A stretch of DNA of 32,000 nucleotides from an uncultured archaeon (GTDB taxonomy: Archaea > Iainarchaeota > Iainarchaeia > Iainarchaeales > JAAZKV01), in contig CAZKBG010000001.1 of NCBI GenBank assembly GCA_964551375.1, positions 150,001 through 182,000 on the forward strand, read 5' to 3'. The notes beneath the pieces are model-generated. The model was given only the letters and a program-made list of their open reading frames with translations. It was not told the DNA's origin and searched no databases. The first letter of the stretch is position 1. Every line of letters starts with the position of its first letter. A program made the position numbers and the translations under genes. Positions 1,911 to 4,940 of this stretch are shown here, piece by piece.

Positions 1911-4900
1911 TTAAGATGCTTCTTCTTCATTATCGCTCAAATCTTCCACTGTTACATTTGATTTAGCGTGTTTTATTTCTTCATCAGCATCGCTTTTTAA
2001 TTTAAGTCCAATAACAGAACTGTCATCTCTTCCTCTTGCCACTCCAATTATTTGATGCGCTTTCTTTGTAATAACATCATTGTGGGTGATTGCAATGAAC
2101 TGGCTCTTTTCAGCGATTTTTTCAATTAAGTTGCTCATCTTTAATGAATTTTCTTTATCAAGCGCCGCATCAGCTTCATCAAATGCGTAAAACGGAGCAG
2201 GGTGGTATAATTGTATTGCGAACATGAAAGCAAGCGCTGTGAGGGTTTTTTCTCCCCCGCTCATTGAATCAATGTTTTGAAGTTTTCCTGCCTTGTGCTT
2301 TGCGTCAATCATTAATCCTGAATCAAGAGGCTTTTCTCCGTCAGCAAGGCGAAGGTCGCCTTCTCCGTTAAAGAATTTAAAGAAAATCTCTTTGAAGTTT
2401 TTGTTAATTTCATTAAAGCAATCCATGAAAACGCTTGTTCTCTTTACTTCAATTTTATCAATCATATCAAGAACTGCCATTCTTTCTTCGCCAAGTTTAG
2501 TTGCTTTTTGCTGTATATCATCAACTTCTTTCTTTAATTCATTAAAATTATCCACTGCCTTGAAGTTAACTGCTCCAATATCGTTGAGTCTTTTTTCAAT
2601 AAAAGCAAGTCTTTCTTTACATTCATCAAGGCTCTTTGAAGCATAAGGCTCAATTCCCTCAAACTCTTTCTTTTCTTCAGACAAATCCGCCTGTCTTACT
2701 CCAAGTTTGCTTTTTTCAATATTAAATTCCCCAGTTCTTACTTCAATCTTTCTTACCTTTCCAGATTCAGTTATTATTTCCTTCTCAAATTTATCAATTT
2801 TCTTATCAGAATAATCTTTTTCTTCAGCCAAAATTGCATTCTTTTTCTTTGCCTCGTGAAGTTGCTTTTCTTTAGCCATCACTTCTTCTTTAATTTCCAT
2901 CAAAAGCTTTTCTTTTTCCATTATTTCCTTTCTTAGCTGCTGGGTCTCGGCAGTAAGCGCGTTATTTTCAATTTCAGCATCCTCGTGCCTTATTGAAAGC
3001 GAGTCAAATCTTACTTTTAATTCATTAAATGCAGTTTCAACAACCCTTCGCTTATGTATAAGTTCTTCTGTTGTTTTGTTTGCTTTTGAATATTCTTCAA
3101 AAATATCCTGCTTTCTTGTGGAAGTAACAGAATCTTTCTGCTTTTCTTTCTCTTCAAGCAGTTGTTTTATTTTCTCATTGAGTTTATTTCTCTTTGACAT
3201 CTGAACGTCAAACTCTTTATTATCAACATCCTTCTTTGTTAGTTCAATTTTCTTCTTTAATTCCTCAAGCTTAGAATGAAGGCTCTTCTCATGAGCAGTT
3301 TCAGCGCTCAGTTTAGCAATAAGCATGATTCTTTCCTTTTCTTCATCAATCCTTTTCTTAATGTCGCTGATTTTAGCCGCGTGCTCTGACTCCATTGATG
3401 AATATTCTCTAATTAGCTTCTCTTTTTGTGCAAGAAGCAGCGCTTTTTTATCTTCTTTTAATGAAGAATCGCAAGTAGGGCACTGCGAAGCAGCTTTTTT
3501 TAGCTCATTAATAGCTTTTTCTTCCTGAAGTTTCTTTGATAAAAACAAATTCTTTGCCTCAAAAATTTCGGACAAATGCTTTTCAAAATCAGCCAGGTTT
3601 TTGTGAGGTTCTTTCTTCAAATGCTCCTCAATATGCTTCTTTTTTTTCTCAATTTCATTAAATTCTCCCTCTAATGCCTTCTCTTCTCCCTGCATTTCAA
3701 TTAATTTCCTTTCAGCAAATGATTTTTGCTTTTCCCAGTTTCTTGCAAGCACCTCAAGATCAAATACTTCCTTTCTGGCTTCTTCAATTTGCTTGTTTAA
3801 TTCTTCAAGTTTAGTCTCTTCTTTTGCTAGTTCAGCATTTTTTGATTTAACAATTCCTTCGAGCTGGGATTTCTTTTTGGAAGCTTCCTCAATCTGCCTT
3901 TCAAATTCTTTTAATTCCCCTTCCATTCTCTTTTGCTTCTCTTCAAGCTCCTTTCTTTCCTTCTCCCCATGCTTTACCGCGCTGGTATTAGTCTCAATTT
4001 TTTCAGTATTTTTTGCAATCTGCTCATTCTTCATGTCAATTTTGCCCTGCTCAAGAAGAAGCTTGGCTTTCTTTTCCTCATACTCTCTTCCAATTGTCGA
4101 GTAAGTTACTTCGCTTGCCTTAATCATCTGCCTTGATAAATCATCAGACTTCTTTTTTGATTCTTCAAGCTCTTTTCTAATTCCAAAAACCCTTTCTTCA
4201 ATAATTCGCTTCTGCTTGTCAAGCTCGCTGATTTCATTATCTGCATCAAGAATTTTTTTCTCAATTGTGTAAAGCTCTTTTGCAATAACAGTTGATTTAG
4301 TCCGCTTTCTTTCATCATCAAGCTCTTTTACTTCCTTAGCCGCCTTCATTTCCTGCTCCAGTTCTGAAAGGAAAGCATTTCGTTCGTTCATAATAATAGT
4401 TGCTTCCTTAATTTTTGAATCAACCTTATCAAGCTCTTTAATTGCCTCGTCCTTTTTTTGATCAAACTCGCTAAGTCCCGCAATATTATCAATAACCTCT
4501 CTTCGCTCAATAGGAGACATTTCAATAATTTTAGTAATATCCCCTTGCGTTACAATATTGTGCCCGTTAACATCAATTCCAAGCTCTGTTAACAGCGAGC
4601 TGATTTCGTTTAGGGTAGTTCTCTTTCCATCAAGGCGGTAAACACTCTTTCCCTGCTTGTCAATCATTCTGCTGATTTCATATTGTTTCTCATCATCTTT
4701 AAGCGTTAAATCAACTTTTCCGTAATTTTCTTTAGCGTCATTATTAACTAAGTCCGTCAGCTTGCCCGCTCTTAATGCTTTAAGCGAAGTGATTCCAAGA
4801 ACAAATAATAAAGCGTCTAAAACATTGCTCTTTCCGGAGCCGTTGCTTCCAACAATAGCAGAGAAGCCCTTGCTAATGGGAACTTCAGCCTTCTTAAACG

Positions 4901-4940
4901 ACTTAAAGTTTTTTAGAGTAAGTTTTATCAGCCTAGTCAT
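1911..4940 (-). CDS. smc: SMC-family chromosome-organisation ATPase, atypical: SMC-type heads, continuous coiled coil, central CPTC instead of a hinge
   Basis: N-terminal LKNFKSFKK...[25 protein letters not shown] (Walker A at nt 4827-4850) and [33 protein letters not shown]. C-terminal signature plus Walker B [36 protein letters not shown]. About 650 aa of K/E/L-rich coiled coil lies between the heads. CPTC at aa 487-490 (nt 3471-3482) out of 1009 aa. Confidence 0.85.
   Translation of the reverse strand: [1009 protein letters not shown]

Follow-up and report, generated by a model that had tools for sequence, protein, structure and literature searches.

An archaeal smc gene with a conserved Rad50-like hook motif in place of the hinge domain

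The hinge is regarded as a defining and universal part of SMC proteins (PMC10512200, PMC10853773), and its roles beyond dimerization, namely DNA binding, a DNA entry gate and communication with the heads, are still debated. In Bacillus subtilis an Smc protein in which the hinge was replaced by the zinc hook of Pyrococcus furiosus Rad50 is functional (Buermann et al. 2017, PMC5344682), and in Rad50 itself a hinge, that of MukB, can take the place of the hook, so that the two are interchangeable there (PMC6969161). Hinge-less SMC homologues that also lack a CXXC motif have been found in ocean metagenomes and were assigned to Actinobacteria (PMC12153180). Here we describe a hook-type smc gene located at positions 1911..4940 (minus strand, ATG start) of a 32,000 nucleotide (nt) stretch of DNA from an uncultured archaeon (JAAZKV01) of the Iainarchaeota/Diapherotrites, a group of tiny DPANN archaea. 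This stretch, called the window in the following, comprises positions 150,001-182,000 of contig CAZKBG010000001.1 (GCA_964551375.1). The encoded protein of 1009 amino acids (aa) has SMC heads, full-length arms and a predicted zinc hook instead of a hinge. We consider it probable that this is a bona fide condensin-type smc gene and that the hinge was replaced by a Rad50-type zinc hook in the ancestor of the hook clade. The sequence comparisons establish that heads and arms are those of an SMC, that a hinge is lacking and that the hook sequence is conserved and Rad50-like; they also show that the gene is a positional orthologue of hinge-bearing smc genes and that its clade is derived. In the literature searched, only engineered hook-bearing SMC proteins and no natural bona fide one were described, although an earlier mention is possible.

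An earlier note, made from the sequence of the window, had proposed a combination of condensin-like heads with a hook at the tip of the coiled coil. When the translation was re-checked, the 1009-aa open reading frame and all head motifs quoted there were located at the given positions, and the full set of ABC motifs is intact. All parts are encoded on the minus strand. The N-terminal half of the ATPase head (aa 1-156, nt 4473..4940) was delimited by its motifs, by alignment to the Smc head of P. yayanosii and by the strands and helices of an AlphaFold2 model, with a predicted local distance difference test (pLDDT) score of 83-92. It contains the FKSF motif (aa 12-15), Walker A (aa 31-39, nt 4824-4850) and an SMC-type Q-loop block ending with AGLSEFD (aa 128-160, nt 4461-4559), which extends into the neck. 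The C-terminal half of the head (aa 858-982, nt 1995..2369), assigned by the same alignment and its motifs, carries the signature MSGGEK (aa 893-898, nt 2247-2264), Walker B and D-loop (aa 917-928, nt 2157-2192) and the H-loop ITHND (nt 2076-2090). It is followed by an acidic, disordered tail (aa 983-1009, nt 1914..1994) with a pLDDT below 50, which shows no conservation in the family consensus.

By sequence comparison the heads and arms of the protein are those of an SMC, neither of Rad50 nor of ASRP/ClsN. The Pfam model SMC_N (PF02463) matches at 9e-41. Among the NCBIfam models, TIGR02169 (SMC_prok_A) reached 529.3 bits and TIGR02168 (SMC_prok_B) 402 bits. Both were aligned in two stretches, query 6-479 to model positions 4-488 and query 478-968 to model positions 679-1167, so that the hinge positions of the models (about 490-680) were left out. 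The equivalog cutoff of TIGR02169 (729.4 bits) was not reached, and this shortfall corresponds to the missing hinge positions. Because the score lies under this cutoff, the protein and its homologues P0003, P0008, P0012, P0025 and others carry the NCBI name 'AAA family ATPase', and keyword surveys would wrongly count archaea with a hook-SMC as archaea without SMC. The best matches in the PDB are the Smc heads of Pyrococcus (5XEI at 2e-84; 5XNS, 4I99). SMC heads of bacteria and eukaryotes come next, and those of Rad50 appeared only at 3e-18. In addition, both coiled-coil arms (aa 157-482 and 496-857) could be aligned end to end with the two arm strands of a hinge SMC, the 1171-aa Micrarchaeota protein P0153 with Pfam SMC_hinge at 510-626, which served as reference for the mapping of hinge and hook. 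The head comparison bears out the view that the heads are SMC-like and not Rad50-like. A Rad50/SbcC orthologue with unusually SMC-like heads, acting together with Mre11 in double-strand-break repair, would explain the zinc hook and the weak matches to the Rad50 NCBIfam models and to SbcC_Walker_B. These models scored only 69-128 bits against cutoffs of 700-1087, far from the 529 bits of SMC_prok_A, and the difference between the Rad50 and Smc heads in the PDB points in the same direction. There is also no mre11 gene nearby, and synteny and phylogeny, described below, side with SMC. The Rad50 reading is effectively refuted and its probability negligible.

Membership in the ASRP family (ClsN, Sph, arcadin-4) or in a defence-related SMC-like family (Lamassu LmuB, Wadjet JetC, MADS) was considered as well. 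The ASRP model NF045487 matches with 118.1 bits and the arcadin-4 (Rkd4) model with 43 bits; the PADLOC defence models gave 157 bits for mad3, 71 bits for LmuB and 23 bits for JetC, and a HerA/DUF87 gene is located 2 kb from the hook-SMC gene. However, the cutoff of NF045487 is 300 bits and its model length 593 compared with 1009 aa, the arcadin-4 score is far under its cutoff, and all defence matches are confined to the generic ABC head. Furthermore, the neighbourhood of ribosomal, Spt5, SecE and FtsZ genes is conserved across about 38% protein identity, and the protein is nested among hinge SMCs in the head tree. The defence-system reading (matches to mad3/mad8 and HerA) was rejected on score, coverage and synteny, and we regard a membership in either group as extremely improbable.

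At the apex no hinge could be detected. The protein shows no Pfam match to SMC_hinge (PF06470) and no match to a local hinge hidden Markov model (HMM) that detects 100 of 100 canonical relatives. The AlphaFold2 model, calculated as a monomer with 112 homologues as input (mean pLDDT 78), consists in this region of a continuous helix (aa 157-482), a 13-residue loop (aa 483-495) and helical sequence from 496 to 857, and it contains no globular apex domain. The absence of a hinge in residues 430-560 or so, as claimed from the letters alone, is therefore supported by Pfam, by the local HMM and by the predicted helical hairpin. The N-terminal arm (nt 3495..4472) was defined by the first helix and a residue-for-residue alignment to the N arm of P0153, the C-terminal arm (nt 2370..3455) by helices with short breaks and alignment to the same protein. 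The composition of aa 157-857, with 18% E, 18% K, 2% G and 3 prolines, agrees with the uninterrupted coiled coil rich in K, E and L that had been described between the heads. When the query and hinge SMCs were aligned globally with MAFFT, the hinge gap was spread across the coiled coil, and phmmer domain mapping was used instead. In this mapping query 1-484 corresponds to P0153 1-483 and query 496-985 to P0153 675-1160. Both arm lengths are kept, and about 190 aa of the hinge region in P0153 are represented by a hook loop of 11-13 aa. On this alignment the apex is that of an SMC lacking the hinge, with some 190 aa swapped for the 11-13 aa of the hook loop.

The tip of the hairpin carries the motif CPTC (C487-C490, nt 3471-3482), which had been noticed near the midpoint of the protein and is located in the apex loop (aa 483-495, nt 3456-3494) between the two predicted helices. 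The loop is part of a Rad50-type zinc-hook region at aa 469-508 (nt 3417..3536), recognized by Pfam Rad50_zn_hook, by a comparison of an apex profile with the PDB and by the invariant Cys-Pro-x-Cys. The 120 closest homologues were taken from a collection of 5.8 billion protein sequences. Their length is about 985-1025 aa, except for a few fragments, four hook-less forms of about 925-940 aa and two intein-containing sequences, and PF06470 was found in none of the 120. The midpoint motif CP-[VTIFL]-C is present in 116 of them, down to about 38% identity. In an alignment of 112 sequences no column between L191 and D752 is invariant except C487, P488 and C490, hence the two cysteines are conserved in the orthologues. 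We also analyzed a set of 257 proteins, consisting of the closest homologues and the 150 top-ranking representatives from an exhaustive profile search, and classed them with the local hinge HMM. This set comprises 141 proteins with a hook, 100 with a hinge, 16 with neither and no protein with both; a CxxC motif occurred in none of the 100 hinge-bearing relatives. Judged from these alignments, the conservation of the midpoint CP-x-C is far beyond chance.

The likeness to the Rad50 hook is stronger than originally claimed, extending over about 25-90 residues around the CxxC motif. In the search with Rad50_zn_hook (PF04423) the full-length protein stayed below the gathering score (18.4 versus 24.3 bits; 22 bits as a fragment), but 41 of 45 apex fragments of the family matched at E < 0.01, with a best value of 3.7e-9, and the short-arm family member P0131 passed the gathering score with 29.4 bits. 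A profile built from the 45 apex fragments (each of 94 aa) was compared with every sequence in the PDB. Its best match was the crystal structure of the P. furiosus Rad50 zinc hook (1L8D, E 4e-12, 90 residues aligned), followed by 6ZFF, the rod of P. furiosus Rad50 (1e-11), and 5GOX, the hook of human RAD50 (7e-4). The apex consensus LkkakakCPvCeseLseekkkkLlek resembles the P. furiosus Rad50 hook well beyond the two cysteines. In the AlphaFold2 model the apex fragment is folded as a helical hairpin tipped by CPTC (pLDDT 90), with a template modelling score of 0.80-0.82 to 1L8D_A and 6ZFF_B. The Foldseek search with this hairpin gave only E-values above 0.3, with Rad50 hooks being consistent but not discriminating. 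Because helical hairpins are generic, the superposition serves as supporting evidence only.

The protein contains four cysteines in total. Since C774 and C841 are far from the apex and near the head, a zinc site with four cysteines at the apex would require two chains. Zinc binding and dimerization via the hook are predicted. Alternatively, CP-x-C could form a structural turn, act as a redox-sensitive pair or offer another factor a place to dock, with dimerization achieved only by the heads, a kleisin or contacts between the arms. Such a role would fit clade relatives that keep intact heads without the cysteine pair or an apex motif, and the structural model, being an AlphaFold2 monomer whose hairpin is not discriminated by Foldseek E-values, leaves room for it. 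However, the similarity to the P. furiosus hook reaches well beyond two cysteines (1L8D at 4e-12), the invariant proline matches the CPxC of Rad50, and a motif kept without exception in 141 sequences points to a precise chemical role. We therefore judge a function of the motif other than a hook to be improbable.

The relatives with neither hook nor hinge deserve separate mention. About 13 proteins of 905-949 aa are nested in the hook clade (one subclade with a bootstrap of 92) and have intact heads, no hinge and no cysteine pair. The group comprises P0099, P0109, P0114, P0118, P0125, P0128, P0134-P0136, P0139, P0143, P0150, L018 and L089:8001-10775. They share no conserved apex motif, and at least one of them is located in the same syntenic slot. 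Therefore apex dimerization may be dispensable in these organisms, or it may be obtained in another way.

The position of the gene in the genome links it to the smc genes of related archaea. A gene for a multi-pass membrane protein of 256 aa (4949..5719, minus strand; Pfam GPDPase_memb 1.5e-7) lies upstream of smc and ends 8 nt from its start codon, and the divergent gene for ribosomal protein L44e (5901..6179, plus strand; Pfam Ribosomal_L44) follows, at the same position as in the loci L002, L004, L005, L008 and L090. On the other side the convergent gene of a Lon_C-containing protein (36..1865, plus strand) has its 5' end beyond the window; in L001 the product comprises 838 aa with PF05362, and the convergent arrangement recurs in the same five loci. 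The conserved order is rpL44e (divergent), a membrane gene of about 260-275 aa, and smc on the same strand as the membrane gene. Beyond smc, on the opposite strand, the convergent Lon_C gene is followed by P1, P0, L1, L11, Spt5, SecE and FtsZ. This housekeeping gene order recurs around orthologues of about 38-40% identity in GCA_016205145.1, in a 1.19-Mb JGI contig and in GCA_043803815.1. Hinge SMCs occupy the same slot. P0149, the hinge SMC of a Diapherotrites metagenome-assembled genome (MAG; L008), has the same downstream block and the same upstream membrane gene, the latter matching the membrane gene of the hook locus with an hhalign probability of 94.8% over 246 columns. The hinge SMC P0146 (L090) is located between rpL44e and Lon, and a Micrarchaeota hinge SMC (L006) adjoins the same ribosomal/Spt5/SecE/FtsZ block.

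A neighbour-joining tree of the heads was calculated with simple distances from 444 columns of head and neck and rooted on bacterial SMCs that a scan of GTDB genomes had yielded. In this tree the hook clade, with a core bootstrap of 87, is nested deep within the hinge-bearing archaeal SMCs. Its nearest neighbours are hinge SMCs of Diapherotrites and Micrarchaeota; the immediate sister relation has a bootstrap of 39 and the wider group one of 64. The protein is thus placed among archaeal SMCs with a hinge, whose genomic slot it shares, and by the NCBIfam and PDB scores it belongs neither to Rad50 nor to ASRP/ClsN. None of the three findings that would have refuted the earlier proposal was obtained. 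By its nested position the hook is derived and arose inside the smc gene of the lineage, not as a separate family, and the shared slot together with the nearest neighbours in the tree indicates that the gene is the smc proper of this lineage. Among the genomes of the GTDB scan, hook-type genes were confined to MAGs named Iainarchaeum or 'ainarchaeum' and to unnamed archaeal MAGs. L018 (PFAI01000009.1), the single MAG of the scan with the label Diapherotrites, has neither hook nor hinge, and a hinge was present in all SMCs of Halobacteria, Methanosarcinales, Aenigmatarchaeota, Asgard, Hydrothermarchaeota and bacteria.

These data also bear on the possibility that the hook-SMC is a specialised paralogue, present alongside a canonical hinge Smc-ScpA and used for repair, plasmid handling or the formation of a ClsN-like compartment. 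Archaea are known to carry additional SMC-related proteins with a hook (ASRP/ClsN; PMC9389158), and no kleisin gene was found near the hook-SMC, neither in the window nor in about 170 kb of orthologous flanks. Against a paralogue stands the finding that the syntenic slot of the hook-SMC is the one that the hinge SMC takes in related MAGs, next to a shared upstream gene, and that the hook-SMC has arms of unchanged length compared with P0153. No assembly with two SMC loci was present among the 80 loci returned by the genome scan. For the 120 proteins closest to the sister-clade hinge SMC, no contig matched in length the contigs of 0.2-1.2 Mb that carry hook-SMCs; both are weak negatives. A hinge-only search for a second SMC yielded 333 candidates, most of them fragments, and did not recover the protein from which it started. 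We consider a paralogue unlikely.

Several features of the smc genes in this lineage were observed in addition. P0251 (L091:2941-5847) is a 968-aa SMC with CPKC at the midpoint, heads that group with hinge-bearing SMCs and another genomic context, and it may represent a second, independent replacement of a hinge by a hook. Hook SMCs with short arms, about 200 aa shorter than the query, are P0131 (807 aa), P0144 (810 aa), P0145 (772 aa) and L017. SMCs from Aenigmatarchaeota (L025, L031, L051; about 830-850 aa) have short arms with the hinge kept, and arm length varies stepwise. Inteins are present in several smc genes of both the hook and the hinge type (P0102, P0117, P0123, P0149 at L008:10001-15346, and L013). 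The mapped inteins of about 540 aa in P0123 (hook) and P0149 (hinge) are inserted at or next to the Walker A P-loop, with alignments covering query 5-42 and, past the insert, 35-983. Some of the inteins include a LAGLIDADG domain.

The membrane gene was proposed to be co-transcribed with smc. A homologue of about 260-275 aa is located on the same strand directly upstream of smc in L002 (9169-9975), L004 (9177-9956), L005 (2030-2848), L089 and the hinge-type locus L008 (9142-9966), with a gap to smc of 5-55 nt. The identity of these proteins across hook and hinge loci is only 18-23%, with weak similarity to GPDPase_memb/DUF7847. The 8-nt gap and the conservation of the linkage are hence confirmed, but the linkage is not special to the hook, as the gene is also found beside the hinge-bearing orthologue of L008. 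Because of this the linkage is older than the hook and not part of the hook innovation; it suggests an old operon joining Smc to a putative membrane protein.

Partner genes were searched for by several approaches. Pfam and NCBIfam scans of all sizeable open reading frames in the window detected no scpA, scpB, mre11 or nurA gene, in agreement with the earlier note, and tblastn searches with ScpA from B. subtilis, Geobacillus, S. pneumoniae and T. onnurineus as seeds found no ScpA in the window and eight loci. ScpA, ScpB, Mre11 and NurA were likewise absent from the orthologous flanks of about 170 kb, a Mre11/SbcD nuclease gene from the window and the eight orthologous loci, and a search of the supplement of a DPANN study for ScpA returned nothing for Iainarchaeota. 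In archaea Smc generally pairs with ScpA in a binary complex, and the two genes often lie apart (PMC7055376); a missing scpA gene near smc is for this reason not informative. Neck and cap residues are conserved in the hook family, which is only suggestive for a contact with a kleisin. As no kleisin was located, the designation of the heads as kleisin-type stays provisional, and ScpA would most likely be the partner.

Further genes of the window were annotated. Beside rpL44e a conserved protein of 284 aa with an N-terminal winged helix-turn-helix (wHTH) domain is encoded at 6275-7129 (plus strand), without a match to any Pfam or NCBIfam family. Proteins of this type (273-284 aa, 32-33% identity) are located beside rpL44e in all hook-SMC loci examined (L002:6861-7685, L004:7393-8214, L005:404-1237). 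The wHTH protein was also tried as a divergent kleisin and rejected, since the hhalign probability versus ScpA was 0.1%. The HerA/DUF87 protein (7156-10686, minus strand; 1176 aa) has an ATPase core at aa 386-780 or thereabouts, an acidic and lysine-rich low-complexity N terminus of about 380 aa and a C-terminal wHTH with weak likeness to TrmB/MarR; from these domains it could be a DNA translocase. A DUF87 protein is also encoded about 8 kb upstream of the hook-SMC in L004. At 17176-19320 (plus strand) a 714-aa protein combines, according to its domains, a glutamine-amidotransferase/asparagine-synthase module with Diphthami_syn_2, a diphthamide synthase-type ATP-pyrophosphatase.

Under the interpretation of a bona fide smc gene with an exchanged apex, the hinge dimerization domain of about 190 aa would have been exchanged for a short Rad50-type hook in the ancestor of the clade. 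Each protomer would fold back on itself, its arm being an antiparallel coiled coil as long as before and tipped by CP-x-C, and two protomers would share one Zn2+ via four cysteines, resulting in a constitutive apex dimer. The heads would retain ATP-driven engagement and disengagement as in ordinary Smc and would most likely be bridged by a kleisin (ScpA). The complex could still entrap and extrude chromosomal DNA, without the DNA-binding or gate functions of the hinge. The hook-Smc would most likely act on the chromosome. The feasibility of the hook-for-hinge swap follows from the functional chimera Smc(Zh) (PMC5344682) and from the exchange between Rad50 and the MukB hinge (PMC6969161).

Some findings weigh against this interpretation. 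The lack of a second, hinge-bearing SMC in the hook genomes rests on synteny and weak negatives, and members of the hook clade without hook or hinge keep intact heads, which tempers the claim that the hook is essential. No kleisin (ScpA), ScpB or other partner is encoded in the window or the orthologous flanks of about 170 kb. In the neighbour-joining tree with simple distances, the relation to Diapherotrites hinge SMCs as immediate sister has a bootstrap of 39, and the bipartition of hook and 'neither' forms one of 69. The wider proposal, that a whole DPANN lineage uses hook-Smc as its only SMC, with the hook probably captured from Rad50 and lost in some descendants, we favour only slightly.

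If it holds true, nature has already run the experiment that the hinge is dispensable. A chromosomal SMC motor would then be able to do without DNA binding by the hinge, a DNA entry gate and communication between hinge and heads, and even dimerization at the apex might be optional. The hook-Smc, natural, widespread and old, indicates that evolution tolerates the same swap that was engineered by Gruber's laboratory in B. subtilis, and the unchanged arm length of the hook-Smc fits the idea of tuned arms. The lineage offers a comparative series in one genomic slot, with hinge, hook, short-arm hook and neither, suited to finding out for which SMC functions the hinge is needed.

Compared with known systems, the hook-SMC resembles prokaryotic Smc (TIGR02169; Pyrococcus Smc 5XEI, 4I99) in heads, motifs, neck, arm length, genomic slot and phylogeny and is its positional orthologue, with the hinge (PF06470; PMC10512200, PMC10853773) replaced by a CP-x-C hook. 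With the Rad50/SbcC hook (PF04423; 1L8D, 6ZFF, 5GOX) it shares the apex CP-x-C, the antiparallel coiled coil and the flanking sequence, whereas the SMC-like heads, the arm length, the genomic context and the lack of a nearby Mre11 gene are different. ASRPs (ClsN, Sph1/2, arcadin-4; PMC9389158; NF045487) have in common with it the archaeal host, a head of the SMC superfamily and an apex zinc hook. In contrast to the SMC orthologue with full-length arms, they are proteins of about 600 aa, form a separate family and are encoded by distinct genes that coexist with SMC or replace it. The hinge-less homologues from ocean metagenomes (PMC12153180) combine SMC heads with the lack of a hinge, as the hook-SMC does, but they resemble the side branch with neither hook nor hinge more than the hook form. 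The engineered Smc(Zh) of B. subtilis (PMC5344682) has the same architecture of SMC heads and arms with a Rad50-type hook. It is a laboratory construct, whereas the hook-SMC is natural, ancient and fixed in a whole clade (141 sequences), with a proposed chromosomal function. The hook used for Smc(Zh) was that of P. furiosus Rad50, which is also the best PDB match of the natural hook profile.

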